A stretch of 38,834 nt of DNA, from the NCBI GenBank assembly GCA_050298595.1, contig JBNKUM010000049.1, positions 1-38,834 on the forward strand, written 5' to 3'. The stretch's first letter is position 1, and each line of letters begins with the position of its first letter. The stretch comes from Gammaproteobacteria bacterium (lineage in GTDB: Bacteria; Pseudomonadota; Gammaproteobacteria; GCA-001735895). A program made the translations under genes and the position numbers. Below the pieces are notes generated by a model. The model saw only the letters and a list, made by a program, of their open reading frames with translations, was not told where the DNA came from and did no database searches. Shown here piece after piece: positions 163 to 38,436 of this stretch.

Positions 163-325
163 CTAGGCTCGAGAAGCGTGGTTTGGTTATTCCAAATGAG
201 CGACGAGCAAAGCTTCCGCTCCTGCTCACGCTCCTTACCTACGTCCATGTAGGCAAAGCTTCCGCTCCTGCTCACGCTCCTTACCTACGTCCATGTAGGC
301 AACAACGAGTGGCGGTTTTTAAACC
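163..325 (+). repeat. Truncated palindromic core repeat carrying two tandem 46-nt modules
   Basis: TAGGCTCGAGAAGCGTGGTTTGGTTATTCCAAATGAGCGACGAG is followed by exact tandem GCAAAGCTTCCGCTCCTGCTCACGCTCCTTACCTACGTCCATGTAG at 207-252 and 253-298, then GCAA. The left arm is missing, cut at CTAG. Confidence 0.85.
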
Positions 326-382: not shown

Positions 383-712
383 TTGACGCCGGCGCAACAA
401 TCACTGGCGGAATTTCTTGAGATCGATATCGATCTGCTGGCAGGTTTGGGGATGGACGAGAAGGCAACCCCACTCGAAGCACCTGATGACAGGGAAACTG
501 ATGTCTGGCTGGACAAATTGCCGAAGACCGAGGTCAGGGGGTACCTTCGACAGATGCTGAATGGGCAAGGTGCGAAGCGAACGCCGAGCGAGAGTCGAAT
601 CGACGATATGCCGCCTGACAACTGCAGTTTGTGCCGGCGCAGGGACTACGTCGCTCGGTCGAGGAATTGTGGCAATTGGCCGAACAGGCCAAACAGCAAC
701 GACTGGCCAAGG
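383..712 (+). pseudogene. Fragment of a conserved hypothetical protein gene
   Basis: No RBS or ATG. Protein-like LTPAQQSLAEFLEIDIDLLAG...WLDKLPKTEVRGYLRQML continues in a shifted frame as LRRSVEELWQLAEQAKQQRLAK and ends at the nested module cluster at 708. Confidence 0.5.
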
Positions 713-814
713 ATGTAGGTGTTAGGGCAAAGCACGACTCCAGGGAGGGGGAGGTACGAGCTCAAGGATGAGCGAAGGTAGGACAATGCAGGAGCTATTG
801 TCGAGGGCGAAGCA
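708..814 (+). repeat. Triple-nested GGA-hairpin modules (A-like > B > C)
   Basis: A-like fragment 708-734; module B 5' part 735-756 and 3' part 805-814 (matches the reverse complement of 37261-37308); 48-nt module C at 757-804 inserted inside B. Confidence 0.8.
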
Positions 815-867: not shown

Positions 868-920
868 ATGTTCCTTTTTGTCGGCATATATTGACATTTG
901 CCGACATTATGGAACATGAT
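868..920 (+). promoter_or_regulatory. abiE promoter with overlapping inverted-repeat operator
   Basis: ATGTTCC-N4-TGTCGGCA (868-886) and TGCCGACA-N4-GGAACAT (899-917) flank a perfect TTGACA (891-896). Candidate -10 CATGAT at 915-920. AbiEi antitoxins are known to autorepress through promoter inverted repeats. Confidence 0.7.
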
Positions 921-926
921 TACAGT

Positions 927-1526
927 ATGAAAAGTGCCGGTCAACAGATTCTAGACATAGCCCACTCGCAAGGGCTTATCCGTCCTCGCGATATTTCTGC
1001 GCGAGGGCTTCCCCGAGTTACTCTGACCAGGCTTGTGCGCGAGGGACGCCTCATCCGGATAGGACGAGGCATGTATGCACTCCCCGACAGGCAAACCTCG
1101 GAGCATGGCTCGCTTGCAGAAGTTGCCAGCAAATATCCCGAAGGAATCATTTGCCTACTATCCGCGCTTCGCGTACATGATCTCACCACGCAATCACCTT
1201 TCGAAGTCTGGCTTGCCATACCTCACAAAGGTCGAGCACCGAAAATGGACTACCCTCCTCTCCGAATAGTGCGCGTCTCAGGCAAAGCTCTGACCGAAGG
1301 TATTGAAGAGCGCATAATAGACGGAGTTACCGTAAGAGTATCCAATGCTGCACGAACCGTGGTCGATTGTTTTAAGTTTCGCAATAAGATTGGACTGGAT
1401 GTCGCACTGGAAGCCCTGCGAGAGGCCTGGGACCATAAACGCGTCAGTATGGATGAGCTGTGGCACTATGCAACGATATTCAGAGTCGCGAATGTAATGC
1501 GCCCTTACATGGAAAGTATTTCATGA
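927..1526 (+). CDS. abiEi: Type IV toxin-antitoxin antitoxin, AbiEi family
   Basis: N-terminal wHTH (LTRLVREGRLIRIGRGMY), SALRVHDLTTQSP and RTVVDCFKFRNKIGLDVALEAL motifs. Likely start is the ATG at 927; ATGA overlap with the next gene. Confidence 0.9.
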   Translation: MKSAGQQILDIAHSQGLIRPRDISARGLPRVTLTRLVREGRLIRIGRGMYALPDRQTSEHGSLAEVASKYPEGIICLLSALRVHDLTTQSPFEVWLAIPHKGRAPKMDYPPLRIVRVSGKALTEGIEERIIDGVTVRVSNAARTVVDCFKFRNKIGLDVALEALREAWDHKRVSMDELWHYATIFRVANVMRPYMESIS

Positions 1527-2440
1527 CTAAGCGACACGTAGCAGCTTCCGTACGTGCCCGCCTGTTCAATCATGCACGTGAAACAAACCAGGATTTTAGC
1601 CTCGTACTAACTCGATTCTGCCTTGAGCGATTGCTGTACCGAATTAGTGTTTCTAAGCACGCGGAGCACTTCCTTCTGAAAGGTGCATTGCTGTTTGACC
1701 TCTGGTTTGACGTACCACACCGAACGACACGAGATGTAGACTTTCTGGGATTTGGATCACCTGAATTATCGAGCGTCGAAAAAACATTTAAAGATATTTG
1801 TAGTATTGATGTAGACGATGGCGTCCTATTCTTACCTGATACAGTTCGGGCTGAGGAAATACGAAAAGACGCCAATTACGCAGGCATACGCATAATGCTA
1901 TTGGCCACTCTGGATGGGGCACGTTGTCAAATTCAGGCTGATGTTGGGTTTGGCGATGCTGTTACGCCAGAGCCACTGGAAGTGGAATACCCAACCATAT
2001 TGAAAGACCTTGATGCACCGAGACTTCATGCATATCCACACTACACCGTTGTTGCTGAAAAGTTCGAAGCGCTGTCAAAACTGGGCATGACCAACAGTCG
2101 TATGAAGGACTATTTCGATCTATGGATTCTCGCGCGCCATACCGATTTTGATGGAGAAACGCTTTGCCAGGCGATCAAAGCTACTTTTTCTCGTCGAAAA
2201 TCGAATCTTCTAGCAGAACCTCCGTTGGGCTTAACGATGGTTTTTGCACAGGAGCCCAAAAAACAGATTCAGTGGCAGGCTTTCCTTCGCAAGAATGCAC
2301 TCGAAGAGCTGCCGTTAAAGGACGTTGTTGATTTTCTCGCTGACTTTTTAATGCCAGCCGCCACTGCAGCTAGTAACGCACAATCCTTCAATTTATGCTG
2401 GGTCCCCGGCGGGCCCTGGGTATTACCAGCAACAGACTGA
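1523..2440 (+). CDS. abiEii: Type IV TA toxin, AbiEii/AbiGii nucleotidyltransferase
   Basis: FLLKGALL..RTTRDVDF nucleotidyltransferase motif, AEKFEA and NSRMKDYFDL. Start ATG at 1523 is coupled to the abiEi stop. Confidence 0.9.
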   Translation: MTKRHVAASVRARLFNHARETNQDFSLVLTRFCLERLLYRISVSKHAEHFLLKGALLFDLWFDVPHRTTRDVDFLGFGSPELSSVEKTFKDICSIDVDDGVLFLPDTVRAEEIRKDANYAGIRIMLLATLDGARCQIQADVGFGDAVTPEPLEVEYPTILKDLDAPRLHAYPHYTVVAEKFEALSKLGMTNSRMKDYFDLWILARHTDFDGETLCQAIKATFSRRKSNLLAEPPLGLTMVFAQEPKKQIQWQAFLRKNALEELPLKDVVDFLADFLMPAATAASNAQSFNLCWVPGGPWVLPATD

Positions 2441-2622: not shown

Positions 2623-3180
2623 ATGAGATCAATAATCCACTTAGCCAAACTACTGTTACTGGTAGTCTCACTACTAACAACAACCTCTTGCACCCAGAAA
2701 ACTACACATGAAGTCACTGAATCTGCTGTTAAAGAAGATTACCAGTCTTACAGCAAAGATGGCCTGAGTTTGCAATATCCCAGCCACTGGTCGCTGGCTT
2801 ATGATGATAATGATGCTCTTCTTGCAAATCGTGATGTCAGCTTTGAAACTCTGGAATTTTCAAAGATAAGCGTACTCATCTATATTAAAAGCTCAGTGGA
2901 TGAGTCTGAGGTTGCCGATATTTTAATACACTCTATAAAGCCTGATACTAATAAGAATATTCAAGGTTTTCAACAAACCCCTATAGAAATCTCAGGTTTC
3001 AGAGGTTATCGGTTTACCTGGAAAAATACATTACTCGGTTCCACTGCCGTTGAAACGACGATATTGAAGATCAGTGTTTCACCTAAACCCGTTTTTGCAG
3101 TTTTTAATTTACTGGCTGAGGATATTGAAAAAGAGTCAGCTAACTTCATCCCCTTTTTAAAGAGCATTTCCTTTCAATAA
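2623..3180 (+). CDS. Hypothetical lipoprotein (possibly PsbP/Mog1p-like fold)
   Basis: Hydrophobic signal ending TTSC. YSKDGLSLQYPSHW resembles the PsbP-like strand motif. RBS-like AGGGA upstream; AT-rich. Confidence 0.7.
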   Translation: MRSIIHLAKLLLLVVSLLTTTSCTQKTTHEVTESAVKEDYQSYSKDGLSLQYPSHWSLAYDDNDALLANRDVSFETLEFSKISVLIYIKSSVDESEVADILIHSIKPDTNKNIQGFQQTPIEISGFRGYRFTWKNTLLGSTAVETTILKISVSPKPVFAVFNLLAEDIEKESANFIPFLKSISFQ

Positions 3181-3213
3181 ATATAAGGTATCAGGGTTTG
3201 ATTTGAGCCGATG

Positions 3214-3243
3214 CGTAGTATGAAGTGAAGTACGAACAGCATC
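3214..3243 (+). repeat. Degenerate REP unit
   Basis: CGTAGTATGAAGTGAAGTACGAACAGCATC aligns by eye with the REP units at 2521-2600. Confidence 0.5.
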
Positions 3244-3350
3244 TTTCCGGACCACCCTCAATCTACGGGCATACTGCCCAAATCGGTGGTGAGAAATTTA
3301 TCTGCGTTTAATTAGCTGAGTTTAAGGTGTAATCAGAAAAAAATTTCACA

Positions 3351-3383
3351 GGCTCACGTCATGAGCCACCTCCTCTCTATAAT
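3351..3383 (+). promoter_or_regulatory. Palindromic operator and -10 box
   Basis: GGCTCA-CGTCA-TGAGCC (3351-3367) lies 10 nt upstream of a perfect TATAAT (3378-3383). Confidence 0.55.
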
Positions 3384-3458
3384 AGCCGCAATTGATCAGG
3401 GCGTGTTGTCCTGGTTTTTGAATTGTCGTTAATTTTTAGACATTAAGAGAGGCTGGTC

Positions 3459-4268
3459 ATGCATACTGTAACAAACCATAGTGATACTCATTCAAAGCGC
3501 GAGCCATTCTTTGCTAAGCAAAATCTGGCTCCATCACCTTCTGGCACTTGCCAGTTATATTCTTCACTTAACTGTAACCGTATCGCTCTCAAATGCCTGA
3601 AGATCAGGGGTAATCAATTCGACGAATCGTTAATGATGATGGCGGTGACTGCTTTGTTACAATGGTTCGACACACAGCTGCTTAAGCCAATCAAGATTGT
3701 TGAAAAAGACTCGGTTCGGGAAATCAGCGTTTTTGACTGTATCCAATATCAGCGACATGAGCCGTCTAAATCTTTCAGCAGCTCTCTGCGTGTCGGAAAA
3801 TCTGAAACCCGTTTGATTCCCTGCCAGGTTACCTTAAACCAGTTGCTGCCCGATCAATGGATGGAAGCCGTCCTGAGACAGGCAGTTGCAGCCGTGTATC
3901 TGAAAGAGATTCGGATGAATCGGGCGGTTTACCGATGTTTACAGGAGGAAACTATCAAGCTGGTACAACGTGACCCAAGATTCCAGCATTTGATTAAAAA
4001 CCTGCTGCCCTGTGCGCTCGCGCTGGATGAACAGTTGCTGTCGATTGCACATCAGTTGTTTCCACATGCTAATGCCAGCTTTGAGGATCTGACCCTGATC
4101 TGGCAAAACCTGCACGTTTATCAAAGGATGATTGATGAGGAAAACCCGTTATTACGCCTGTTTCACCTGACCCGCTTACAACGTTTGAAGTGTCCTGTGA
4201 GTAAACGCAGATCCTGCGCTACCCAGCAAAAGCAACCCAGAGGCCTGACTTTAGTGGCTGTTTATTGA
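3459..4268 (+). CDS. Hypothetical protein, probably 3'-truncated or frameshifted
   Basis: 269-aa ORF with GAGG RBS. The C-terminus looks out of frame and is followed by a 14-nt direct duplication TACTGTTGCGTTGG (4280-4293, 4295-4308). Confidence 0.55.
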   Translation: MHTVTNHSDTHSKREPFFAKQNLAPSPSGTCQLYSSLNCNRIALKCLKIRGNQFDESLMMMAVTALLQWFDTQLLKPIKIVEKDSVREISVFDCIQYQRHEPSKSFSSSLRVGKSETRLIPCQVTLNQLLPDQWMEAVLRQAVAAVYLKEIRMNRAVYRCLQEETIKLVQRDPRFQHLIKNLLPCALALDEQLLSIAHQLFPHANASFEDLTLIWQNLHVYQRMIDEENPLLRLFHLTRLQRLKCPVSKRRSCATQQKQPRGLTLVAVY

Positions 4269-4404
4269 GCCCAGCCACATACTGTTGCGTTGGGTACTGT
4301 TGCGTTGGCTGTCAAATATTTGTGACATATTTGTAACCCCCTACCGGGTTAGAGCAAGGCAGTGTAGTATTCTTTAAATCGTTGCAAATTGAGACCTAAC
4401 TGAG

Positions 4405-4584: not shown

Positions 4585-4658
4585 TTCATTCGTCATTGCA
4601 AGGCCTGAAAAAACGCAGTTAGTACGGGCTCAAGGATTAGATGTCGTGAAGGTATAAC

Positions 4659-4961
4659 CCTGGATTCCGCAGTTGGACGAGTTGTAGTGCGTTTGAGGTG
4701 CTGTAGACCAAGGTGTGACGACGCACAATAGCGAGCTTTTCCAGGGAGTTACAAAGCTATCGCGTCCTGCTCACGCCCCTTACCTATGTCCCTATAGGCA
4801 AAGCTTCCGCGTCCTGCTCACGCCCCTTACCTATGTCCCTATAGGCAAAGCTTCCGCATCCTGCTCACGCCCCTTACCTATGTCCCTATAGGCAACACAG
4901 AGATACGTTTAGGAAACAGAAAGATACTCTCTAATACGAGCGCTCAACTGCGGATTCCAGA
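4659..4961 (+). mobile_element. MITE with IS1380-like ends carrying three tandem 47-nt modules
   Basis: Ends CCTGGATTCCGCAGTTG / CAACTGCGGATTCCAGA. Units start at 4752, 4799 and 4846, followed by CAA at 4893. No matching TSD. Confidence 0.85.
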
Positions 4962-5056
4962 TTCAAGCAGACTTTACCGCGTGATATGTGAACCGATGCA
5001 GAGTTTATTTCTAGAAATCTCATAGTATTAATATTGTTCAAGTCTGAGATATTGCC

Positions 5057-5257
5057 ATGATGTTTTATTTTGAAGATACAACACAGATTGAAAAAATCGT
5101 CGAGCAGGAAAACAAGATACTCATTCTGGATGGTACAACTTGTTTAGATTATGTTGACGAGAAACCGGTATTTGACAAGAAAAGTAGATTAAAGACATTT
5201 TTTGGGTATCTAAGCACTCATATCAACAACCACCGGCATATAAAGCCAGTGGCTTGA
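5057..5257 (+). CDS. 66-aa small protein, paralog of 4405-4584
   Basis: MFYFEDTT...ILILDGTTCLDY is conserved at protein level with synonymous nucleotide differences. Confidence 0.7.
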   Translation: MMFYFEDTTQIEKIVEQENKILILDGTTCLDYVDEKPVFDKKSRLKTFFGYLSTHINNHRHIKPVA

Positions 5258-5328
5258 GATAACTGCGGGAAGCCGGTCATTTCATGTCTGAGCAACTAAA
5301 AAGTAAAGCTTCTCAAAAATCAGTACTG

Positions 5329-5454
5329 CTATGATGCGGAATGATCAAATACACTGTGAGCGGTCTTTTTCTCTTTCTTAGCAGCCTTTTTCTCTTTTGC
5401 AGTCATTAATGGCTTCTTTTTATCTTCTTTGTTACCTTTCTTTTCTTTACTCAT
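5329..5454 (-). CDS. 41-aa lysine-rich small protein (not in ORF track)
   Basis: MSKEKKGNKEDKKKPLMTAKEKKAAKKEKKTAHSVFDHSAS with AAGGAG RBS 8 nt upstream of ATG. Confidence 0.7.
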   Translation of the reverse strand: MSKEKKGNKEDKKKPLMTAKEKKAAKKEKKTAHSVFDHSAS

Positions 5455-5703
5455 GATATTTGCTCCTTAGCACGGGACATAGATTGCCCTAAGTCCACCA
5501 TATACCTGAATTTTGCCAATAGCGAATCAGTTAAACTGATCAGCTAAAGAATGGGTCGATATAAATCCTAATAAGGCGCATAATGAGTTACGCAATTCTT
5601 TATTAGCCTGACTTCACTTCTGCTGATCTTCACTAACCGTCTCCAAACCGAAACTTGAAGATTCACAGCCTTCTACATCACAAACATATCACTGGACCCA
5701 AAC

Positions 5704-23743: not shown

Positions 23744-24570
23744 CTATGAACCTTCCCTGGAAACATAGAATATAAGGTTTAAACCTAGATTCCGCAGTTG
23801 ACCGCTCGCAATAGAGGTTACCCCACTGCTTCATAAACCATTACAGTTGATGTGTATAATCACCCAATCGGTGCATCCCGCTACGAACTGAATTACACGT
23901 TTGAGGCGGCGTATCTCTTCGTTGTAACTCCTTGGAATAGCTGGCTATTCCGCGTCGTTACGCCTTGATCTACACCACCTCAAACGCACACTTCAACTCG
24001 TCCAACTGCGGATTCTAGGTTAAAGGGTCATCTTCATCTGCATGAAAAAAACCCTGACTGTCCCAGGGCACCAATCGGGGAATATCTCCAACAGCGGTAT
24101 CACGAATTTCGGTATCATCAAATTGAAATTGAAAACGACACATTGTTGAACGGCACTCATTGCCAACCACGCTAACACCTGAATATTGTTTATTGCTGAT
24201 ATTGTTCATAATCTCGTTTTGTGCCCAGTTGCTCTAATTCGACATCTTGATTAGTATCAGCAGCAGTAGTTTCCTGTTAACTCTCCTGGCTCTCATGTTC
24301 TAGCTCAGTGTTTTCGGCTTGATTTTGCTGCGTAGCCTGTTGTAAGTCATTCAGCTGTTTTTGAAGACTTTTTAAATCTTGCTGCAAATAGGAAACTTCA
24401 TCCCGATACAGCTCCAGGTCTGAGTTATTAGTTGTGGTTTCTTTGGGTGTTGGTATGAAGGCCTGTGACTTTGTTGGAACAGAGTCGATATTATTTGTTG
24501 CAATCCACAAAATAGCCAGTCCACATATAAAGCCAATAATCGTAGCTGTAAATGTATGTGTAGTTTTCAT
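23744..24570 (-). pseudogene. Membrane-anchored protein gene (ECRSTMCR motif) broken by a stop, a frameshift and a MITE insertion
   Basis: ORF pieces 24277-24570 (TM plus coiled coil) and 24015-24209. Removing 23784-24019 plus one TTAAA restores in-frame ...HADEDDPLNLIFYVSREGS-stop at 23744. Confidence 0.75.
23784..24019 (-). mobile_element. Complete 236-bp MITE, IS1380/ISEcp1-like ends, 5-bp TSD, module-free core
   Basis: CCTAGATTCCGCAGTTG ... CAACTGCGGATTCTAGG (17 bp, 1 mismatch) flanked by TTAAA at 23779-23783 and 24020-24024. Confidence 0.9.
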
Positions 24571-25203: not shown

Positions 25204-25393
25204 AACCCCGCTACGAGCTGAATTGCACGTTTGCGCAGGCGACCTCTGCGTTGCCTATAAGGACATAGGTAAGGGGCGTGAGCAAGACGCGGAAGTCTTG
25301 TAATTCCCTGGAATAGCCTGCTATTCCGCGTCGTCACACCTTGATCTACACCACCACAAACGCACTTCAGCTCGTCCGACTGCGGATTCCAGG
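25204..25393 (-). mobile_element. One-ended MITE copy with a single 47-nt module
   Basis: Colinear with about 23873-24019. Module between TTG 25251-25253 and TTG 25298-25300. End CGACTGCGGATTCCAGG. Confidence 0.82.
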
Positions 25394-25441
25394 TTGAAGC
25401 GCTACACTAGTGTCCTTGTGTCTATATAAACCCCGGCCCAA

Positions 25442-37097: not shown

Positions 37098-37152
37098 AAG
37101 TGATCTATAGTTTATCTGCACATATCTGGCGAGTGATTATTAACAGTTCAAA

Positions 37153-37395
37153 CCTGGATTCCGAAGTTGGACGAGTTGTAGTGCGTTTGAGGTAGTGTAG
37201 GTCAAGGCTACGACGCGGAATAGCGAGCTATTCCAAGGAGTTACAAGTCCTGTCGCGTCCTCGGCTCGGGCATCCTGCTTCGCCCTACCTCCTCCCTCCC
37301 TGGAGTCGTGCTCACGCCCCTTACCTATGTCCTTATAGGCAAGGCTTCCGCGTCCTGCTCACGCCCCTTACCTATGTCCTTATAGGCATCACAGA
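37153..37395 (+). mobile_element. One-ended MITE copy with two modules, the first interrupted by module B
   Basis: Starts CCTGGATTCCGAAGTTG. Unit 1 at 37244-37339 contains the 48-nt insert 37261-37308; unit 2 at 37340-37386. Confidence 0.85.
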
Positions 37396-38406: not shown

Positions 38407-38436
38407 AGGGCCTGTCAACACGTGTTAACAGGCCCT
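38407..38436. repeat. 30-bp palindrome resembling two abutting IS5-family-like termini
   Basis: AGGGCCTGTCAACAC-GTGTTAACAGGCCCT, one mismatch, no spacer. Confidence 0.55.

Follow-up and report, generated by a model that had tools for sequence, protein, structure and literature searches.

We analysed a 38,834-nt stretch of gammaproteobacterial DNA (hereafter the window), which is the whole of contig C49 of the 5.49-Mb draft genome G000 (119 contigs, 45% G+C), with attention to a short array at positions 709–829. Upstream of the array, on the forward strand, lies the truncated 5′ part of a gene, here called gene X (383–713), which has no Pfam match; directly downstream is an AbiEi antitoxin/AbiEii toxin gene pair (891–2437, forward strand; Pfam PF13338, 1.4e-15, and PF08843, 2.6e-45), also found behind the orthologous spacer in contig C34 of genome G012 (G012:C34). 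The array between them is probably a copy, in truncated form, of a stack in which very small non-coding mobile modules are nested at three levels. For comparison within the genus we used 14 genomes, G000 included, of which G001 is the nearest relative (91–93% identity).

Read 5′ to 3′ on the forward strand, the array comprises the 3′ remnant of an A-type head hairpin (709–724), joined to gene X at a shared GGA (711–713); the 10-nt tail of an A-type module, GGGCAAAGCA (725–734); the head hairpin of module B (735–756), which at 22 nt is one base short of the common form; the head hairpin of module C (757–780; stem GCTCA/TGAGC, loop AGGA); the second hairpin of C (781–804), made of its tail GGACAATGCA and a closing piece (stem GACAAT/ATTGTC, loop GCAGGAGCT); the tail of B, GGGCGAAGCA (805–814), parted from the B head by C; and a degenerate 3′ piece of the outer module (~815–829), orthologous by alignment to a degenerate piece in G012:C34. 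A sequence-only reading of this DNA had described C inside B inside an A-like module, and the strings it quoted for all three were found in their places, B (735–756 and 805–814) being split by the 48-nt C (757–804). With C removed, B rejoins to a near match of intact B, as had been proposed, and is one base short in its G-rich loop (32 versus 33 nt). The A-like module stands in part: its tail and the 3′ part of its head are present, but the head is truncated and fused to a truncated gene, and a whole module it is not.

An intact 48-nt B, with head, tail and 3′ piece, is present on the reverse strand at 37261–37308, its first 33 nt corresponding to 37276–37308. These 33 nt occur in 16 copies in G000 at up to three mismatches, six of them exact, and patterns read backwards, our control for the core, junction and B searches, gave no match, which excludes chance. 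The whole 48-nt C, in turn, occurs once in G000, even at up to six mismatches; there its first 37 nt (757–793) and last 32 nt recur only separately, the former at contigs C110, C67 and C104; nearly full-length matches lie at C74 and C69. Related genomes do contain C as a recurring 48-nt unit. In three metagenome runs (X2–X4), summed contig depth over 753–793 (the head and tail of C) was ~30–70-fold that over the unique flanks, indicating a high-copy repeat in those samples, with all organisms pooled.

Since the array lies 700 nt from the contig end and no single public contig spans the whole region, one might suspect that the similarity is due to chance or that repeats at the contig end misled the assembly. 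We consider this extremely improbable: exact unitigs of four public DNA runs tile the region without differences (664–779, 753–808 and 785–899), the same 107-nt arrangement was independently assembled in genomes G010 and G012, and the reversed-pattern controls gave zero. An extra A behind position 745, in the B head, occurs as a variant in the unitigs of all four runs. The public runs listed as containing the sequence included none of RNA.

That the modules, though distinct in sequence, have one common architecture, as the sequence-only reading supposed, was borne out by the ~150 arrays from which we derived their anatomy. The basic unit is 48 nt long and has neither terminal inverted repeats nor coding capacity. 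Its head follows the plan [C/G]GA, a 5–9-bp stem with a loop of the form N-GGA-N, then (A)GGTA, and is linked by GGTAG to a second hairpin or to a GCGAAGC tail, where the loop or junction reads GCA-GGA. The tail is 10 nt long and ends in GCA, and the 3′ piece begins with GGA and ends with CGA(G). In some families the tail pairs with the 3′ piece to give a second hairpin with the constant loop GCAGGAGC; the stems of these hairpins (GACAAT/ATTGTC, GTAAC/GTTAC, GCAAC/GTTGC and CAGGTTTT/AAAACCTG, for example) covary between families while the loop remains constant, and a flanking stem of at least 5 bp was found at 18 of 219 GCAGGAGC sites in G000 versus 1 of 34 for a control motif. The tail of the B family contains GCGAAGC, which we take to be the very stable DNA mini-hairpin of Hirao and co-workers.

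Folding and covariation agree with this plan. Positions 757–804 (C) fold into two hairpins at −10 kcal/mol (z −4.3). The head stem, scored for covariation over 105 distinct copies that come from many genera, reached 0.297, compared with a mean of 0.117 for shuffled alignments, none of 500 of which reached 0.297, and with at most 0.101 for slid controls; one head-stem pair, for instance, is GC in 51 copies, CG in 22 and AU in 14. G-T wobbles are confined to the purine-rich strand of the stems. All 105 aligned copies carry the linker GGTAG unchanged, though the pattern used to find them included it; the same linker stands before the second hairpin of C and its relatives, whose selection did not depend on it.

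[quoted passage not shown] In the first MITE family, B is inserted in two copies, one at G000 C36:1606–1909 and one in the window, where the intact B at 37261–37308 lies in a 47-nt repeat unit of MITE 37143–37395, flanked there by GCA and GGA; most copies of the family are without B. In the second, the site GCGAG-GAG-CTTGC is empty in ~15 distinct copies (20 of 33 rows, palindromic elements being read from both ends) and filled in five at the same site, by four single units of 44–48 nt with different stems and by one two-unit stack; the different stems point to independent arrivals. A third host repeat in G000 has no insert at C86 and C44 but carries one at C22, C103 and C110, and G012:C24 has two copies of one host hairpin, of which one is empty and the other contains the whole stack. 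GCA-GGAGC hairpin loops of Shewanella hanedai are empty at two loci (L202, L205) and filled with 48 nt at two others (L203, L204), and two orthologous Pseudomonas REP hairpins are filled in G045 and empty in G061 and G042, respectively, with a net difference of 48 nt.

The coding case is pglX, the methyltransferase gene of the BREX phage-defence system. In Escherichia coli ZF34 it carries a 48-nt in-frame unit (L210 4001–4049) that adds 16 residues (DDCMDAGGRATQDAKA) to an open frame of 1,233 residues, and the site is uninterrupted in the alleles PEC408 and EC291. The same module inside pglX was found in E. coli ZF31, a Salmonella plasmid and a Moellerella plasmid; in E. coli as a whole the unit is present in 2 of 5,426 genomes. 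Relative to PEC408 and EC291, the ZF34 gene additionally lacks 30 nt just upstream.

At all filled sites the insert can be written as 5′-CGR…YCGA-3′ following an A, with termini that are not inverted, 1–3 ambiguous bases and no longer duplication; no target-site duplication was seen. The filled and empty sites show that exact 48-nt units arrive one way round at hairpin loops and hinges, and at the two equivalent positions in resident units. The sequence-only reading had gone further, in that modules were thought to target each other preferentially. All 16 intact B copies in G000 do touch other modules, with GCA as left flank in 13 and GGA as right flank in all 16, but modules as such are not the target: hosts other than modules offer the short junction or loop position too, namely MITEs of three families, REP hairpins of Pseudomonas and one protein-coding gene. 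G000 has 4,532 GCAGGA sites, a small share of which lie within modules.

Using a strict motif set, we counted 115 arrays in G000 versus four in the reversed genome; MITEs of three families hold 60 of the 115 (49, 5 and 6), and the other 55 lie elsewhere. In all 90 adjacent pairs (motifs within 120 nt of each other) both motifs lay on one strand, none being inverted, which bears out the constant co-orientation that the sequence-only reading had put forward for testing. Relative to neighbouring genes we saw no preferred orientation, with 23 same versus 22 opposite in co-directional spacers for all arrays and 7 versus 6 for free arrays. Free arrays are enriched between convergent genes, where 17 of 40 were located, convergent spacers making up ~17% of intergenic length. 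This placement suggests tolerated selfish DNA.

Where two units meet, nested order dominates. With T for a GCGAAGC-type tail and D for a 3′ piece, the 68 tail-bearing arrays of G000 read TD (33), T (21), TTDD (8), TDD (3), TDTTDD (1), TTD (1) and TDTDT (1); the bracket order of head-tail, head-tail, 3′ piece, 3′ piece is thus seen in eight arrays versus one in tandem order, and in all eight the outer head is of A type and the inner head is B. In G001, arrays consist of stacked C-type heads followed by stacked second hairpins, in numbers of (4,3), (3,4), (2,2) and (2,1), which is what repeated insertion at the head/tail hinge predicts. Across the 14 genomes, B is intact in 71 cases and has a C-type head behind its own head in eight, to which the window copy (with its indel) and one diverged copy can be added; B with C is hence not the common form from which B derives. 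The junction between the closing piece of C and a tail was found at 28 places, spread over 7 of the 14 genomes (control, 0). Nor is C restricted to B: besides following B heads, it stands behind at least four kinds of A head, in G001, G004, G005 and G008. The subtype of the 3′ piece (GGAT versus GGAA) could not be used to pair heads with their own 3′ pieces, since single units carry both.

The sequence-only reading took the window array itself as an ordered record of insertion events, and at this locus that view fails. The 107-nt composite recurs at 95–97% identity in different flanks at G010:C88, G010:C28, G012:C24 and G012:C100, with weaker copies at G012:C51 (95% over 84 nt) and G012:C10 (88%). 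In these recurring composites a full A head is combined with one or two 3′ pieces, the latter at the place of 815–829; complete A heads stand before the composite in G010 and G012 at loci L023–L026. Its presence in several different flanks indicates that the stack was made once and spread as a block; it was not built at the window locus. Gene X is 88% identical to G012:C34:496–821 and G010:C39:20116–20441, both of which run ~280 nt further, and the window open reading frame (ORF) at 383–718 matches them only as far as ~713. At the shared GGA the sequence switches from gene X into the middle of the A head, and orthology of the window to the G012:C34 spacer upstream of AbiEi/AbiEii extends from the closing piece of C. 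The broken gene and the mid-head switch at GGA point to truncation of the window copy by microhomology deletion.

The ancestral order of events would then have been an outer A-type unit, entry of B at the junction between the tail and 3′ piece of A, and entry of C at the head/tail hinge of B, after which the composite would have been copied to several loci. Later, a deletion at the GGA microhomology would have cost the window copy its 5′ end and, with it, the 3′ part of the neighbouring gene. In G012, positions 1–792 of contig C210 are 100% identical to G000:C103, module array included, the remainder of G012 being ~87–92% identical; this could be due to mis-binning or to recent transfer.

Units of this kind extend beyond the genus. 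The 17-nt core GGTAGRGCGAAGCAGGA occurs 27 times in G000, in 8 of 13 other genomes of the genus, in 2 of 11 from the rest of the family and in none of 16 from other families of the class. A scan for GGTAGRGCGAAGCAGGA with one genome per species gave at least 121 stretches. Among the matches listed, both flanks are conserved in 73 of the 121 stretches, and the core of the 3′ piece, which lies outside the search pattern, differs at no more than 2 of its 10 positions in 135 of 145 matches; chance as the source of the 17-mer matches outside the genus was rejected on the latter count, for flanks that were not targeted. The listed matches include Pseudomonas, Ectopseudomonas, Phytopseudomonas, Shewanella, Marinobacterium, Endozoicomonas and Pseudoalteromonas, as well as Cellvibrionaceae, Sedimenticola, Thiohalomonas, Thiohalophilus, Chromatiales, Lysobacterales and Methylococcaceae; six of those listed are non-gammaproteobacterial, and for five of the six, which have no conserved flanks, chance seems the source. 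Named Pseudomonas, Shewanella and Marinobacterium genomes have 1–5 copies of the core, and there are 49 in one metagenome-assembled genome, G041, in which G041:C17:34000–41000 (L201) holds a tandem array of 26 47-nt units split by an IS3-family element (ORFs 2684–3217 and 3193–4275 of that locus).

GGA is found in every conserved unpaired part of the modules, that is, in the head loop and in the GCA-GGA junction or loop, with six GGA within the 107 nt of the window composite. Such a GGA in a hairpin loop is a mark of CsrA sites, and together with the covarying stems, the fixed loops and a distribution limited to Gammaproteobacteria it raises the alternative that the modules are functional RNA elements, either portable sites for a GGA-recognising regulator (CsrA/RsmA) or pieces for translation control, with nesting as a by-product. 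The random orientation of the arrays to neighbouring genes and the location of over half of them inside MITEs speak against this, as does Rfam: no family, the Csr/Rsm models included, matched the window at the gathering score, and 18 module loci searched at E ≤ 1 gave only two weak, unrelated matches. We therefore regard an RNA function as a very unlikely explanation of the arrays.

The alternative that calls for the closest weighing is that the units have no dedicated mobility, the mosaics having arisen by replication slippage, template switching and ectopic gene conversion at the shared linkers (GGTAG-tail-GCAGGA, GGTA and CGAG), so that nesting would be one of several equivalent parsings. 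Most junctions can indeed be parsed in several ways, as units begin and end with motifs of their flanks (around B, for example, the tail is redundant over 8–10 nt), and tandem amplification does occur, as seen in 24-nt heads in threes and second hairpins in fours in G001, in a run of three 47–48-nt units in G000 C8 and in the 26 units of G041. The deletion at the window locus itself is of this microhomology type. What such processes leave unexplained are the first arrivals of an exact 48-nt unit at no more than 3 nt of homology (pglX, the Pseudomonas REPs and the MITE site GCGAG^GAG), the four single units with different stems at one MITE site, the near absence of tandem order in G000, and the conservation of loops and linkers with covarying stems across gammaproteobacterial orders. 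On this evidence we think a purely mosaic origin unlikely.

Several observations nevertheless weigh against reading the arrays as nested mobile modules, and some of them favour the mosaic alternative. The numbers of heads and second hairpins are unequal in several arrays, including some of those in G001, and some nested arrays are without one 3′ piece; the unequal counts indicate that slippage or deletion also shapes arrays. Where orthologous array loci were compared (G012:C24 with G000:C67 and G010:C88 with G000:C103), they differed by complex rearrangements, with no clean gain of a module. No joint and no C-less allele was present among the contigs of the four public runs, in which rare variants are dropped. 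The left flank, GCA or GTA in the genus, is different in Pseudomonas REPs, so the target appears not to be one fixed short sequence. Orientation showed no bias with respect to local GC skew (58 versus 54 for arrays, 8 versus 5 for B heads) in this draft genome, a test weakened by the many arrays that ride on MITEs; its outcome argues against a mechanism like that of the insertion sequences (IS) of the IS200/IS605 group, which would predict such a bias. Finally, an array lies within 2.5 kb at only 1 of 23 Y1-transposase loci in G000, and Y1 gene counts and module counts run only loosely parallel across the genus.

Taking the modules as mobile, we propose that units would insert in one orientation, with no target duplication beyond the 1–3 ambiguous bases, landing at an A^G junction in structures prone to be single-stranded: the loop of the second hairpin (GCA^GGAGC), the head/tail hinge (GTA^GGG) or the apex region of REP and MITE hairpins. 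Each unit carries loop and hinge sites of its own and units could thus land inside one another; self-carried targets would lead to bracket-like arrays and composites, which then move as blocks, with slippage and microhomology deletion remodelling the arrays. From the covariation of stems with strand-specific wobbles, and from targets that appear structural rather than sequence-based, we infer that the substrate is folded single-stranded DNA and that catalysis is supplied in trans.

As to the enzyme, our favoured though tentative candidate is of the HUH/Y1 type, like IS200 transposases or REP-associated tyrosine transposases (RAYTs). It is considered first because Y1 enzymes act on hairpins with a guide tetranucleotide such as GT[AG]G, as described in PMC6006769. 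What counts against it is the near absence of arrays beside Y1 loci, the loose parallel between Y1 and module counts across the genus, and the lack of a replication-strand bias. G000 has 26 matches to the Y1 transposase family (PF01797), many with internal stop codons; several are in ORFs of 230–290 residues, longer than a plain IS200 transposase. Some other, different enzyme is also possible but equally tentative, and an enzyme-free template-switch process behind the insertions seems somewhat doubtful. With a little less than even confidence, we suggest that the modules constitute an undescribed class of transposable unit, among the smallest known, of 48 nt with two hairpins and no inverted ends, spread over many gammaproteobacterial orders and inserted at A^G in folded single-stranded DNA by a conserved trans-acting enzyme. 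In such a class each unit would recreate its target, giving arrays of the form a^n b^n, and 16 in-frame codons could be added to a gene, as in pglX.

Among known systems, REPs are described as short intergenic imperfect palindromes with GT[AG]G at the 5′ foot of the hairpin, covarying families, G-T pairs and clusters, and with occasional insertion in other palindromes and in genes (PMC6006769, PMC3733652). The modules are alike in being imperfect palindromes in the 20–65-nt range with a GTAG foot, covarying stems, G-T pairs and clusters, and in occasionally entering other palindromes and genes. They differ in that REPs typically form inverted pairs (bacterial interspersed mosaic elements, BIMEs, or REP doublets forming hairpins, REPINs), which is not seen for any of the 90 module neighbours; in that a RAYT gene is normally flanked by REPs (a REPtron), whereas arrays are near just one of the 23 Y1 (PF01797) loci here; and in being a fixed 48-nt two-hairpin unit with loops and linkers conserved across orders, REP families being mostly species- or genus-specific. 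IS200/IS605 elements, for their part, carry subterminal hairpins close to either end, lack terminal inverted repeats, cause no target duplication, act on single-stranded DNA and insert in an orientation-specific manner beside a short motif (PMC6006769). The modules resemble derivatives of these in having subterminal hairpins at both ends and in lacking terminal inverted repeats and duplications, with 48-nt inserts bounded by at most 1–3 ambiguous bases in six kinds of filled/empty pair. They are unlike them in showing no replication-strand bias, no linked transposase and apparently no single left-flank tetranucleotide across taxa: GCA precedes most B copies (13 of 16), GTA precedes C, and other flanks are found in Pseudomonas REPs. 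To our knowledge, they are also far smaller than any IS200/IS605-type element.

On a comparison of descriptions only, the nearest concept would be that of the small dispersed repeats (SDRs) of Nostocaceae. These are reportedly 21–27 nt long and are said to nest in each other. They are presented as mobile hairpin repeats of tens of nucleotides at a short palindromic motif (PMC5861425, PMC3116915), and PMC5861425 states that they are absent outside Nostocaceae. SDRs are cyanobacterial, whereas the modules are gammaproteobacterial, 48 nt long and made of two hairpins. Rickettsia palindromic elements (RPEs) offer a parallel to the in-frame module of pglX (48 nt, 16 codons), being hairpin repeats in frame within a coding sequence that stays open (PMC3184786, PMC3733652). 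RPEs, however, are confined to Rickettsia and not reported to nest in themselves, as the modules do. RPEs are also longer than modules. With MITEs the modules have in common that they are non-coding, multi-copy and present or absent at orthologous sites; they are several times smaller, without terminal inverted repeats or duplication beyond 1–3 ambiguous bases, and here use MITEs as hosts. That the modules are themselves MITEs was rejected in view of their non-inverted termini and the lack of target-site duplication.

We did not find the modules described in the literature on REPs, REPINs, MITEs or Thiomargarita, though subscription papers may differ, and the conserved core was not found in the text of the papers searched, though subscription papers and supplements (for example, the REP types of PMC6006769) may hold it. 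They are apparently undescribed, and kin to small hairpin repeats of the REP and SDR type, among which they are unusual in a unit length fixed at 48 nt, strict co-orientation, nesting in themselves, and cross-order conservation of loops and linkers.

Were the modules mobile as proposed, a 48-nt unit without coding capacity or inverted ends would lower the presumed minimum size of mobile DNA, and its small, defined and self-renewing target would make the recognition and cleavage of folded single-stranded DNA tractable to study. Nested arrays would store the relative order of insertions, with possible use as lineage markers, B always being the inner, younger unit in this genus. Modules would also account for contig breaks and odd-looking intergenic mosaics in many gammaproteobacterial assemblies and, with 16 codons open in at least one frame, readily supply in-frame insertions to proteins, the case at hand being in a phage-defence methyltransferase gene (pglX). 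GGA-bearing loops conserved from Pseudomonas to Shewanella would point to a conserved protein partner.

Further units of the same architecture lie elsewhere in the window. Two tandem 46-nt units of a related family (207–298, reverse strand) are within the repeat at the contig start (1–368), a multi-copy repeat of the MITE family with ends like AGGGCCTGTTAACAC; the break of the contig is probably due to its starting inside this repeat. Families D1 and D2 are represented by three tandem 47-nt units (4764–4901, reverse strand) inside MITE 4649–4902, whose flanks are 14–18 kb apart in G001 and G012 (window 4600–5700 compared with G001:C3 and G012:C34), and a block is therefore either missing from G000 or gained by its relatives. 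One 47-nt unit (I3, I6; 25248–25300, forward strand) is within MITE 25244–25399. A 241-nt MITE with ends like AACCTGGATTCCGCAGTTG occupies 23779–24019; the orthologous site in the nearest relative is empty and contiguous (G001:C6:13752–13756), and copies 95–97% identical to this MITE are present elsewhere in G001 and G010. Near the other end of the window, 38407–38436 form an almost perfect palindrome of 30 nt, AGGGCCTGTCAACACGTGTTAACAGGCCCT, which looks like two ends of the third MITE family in direct contact.

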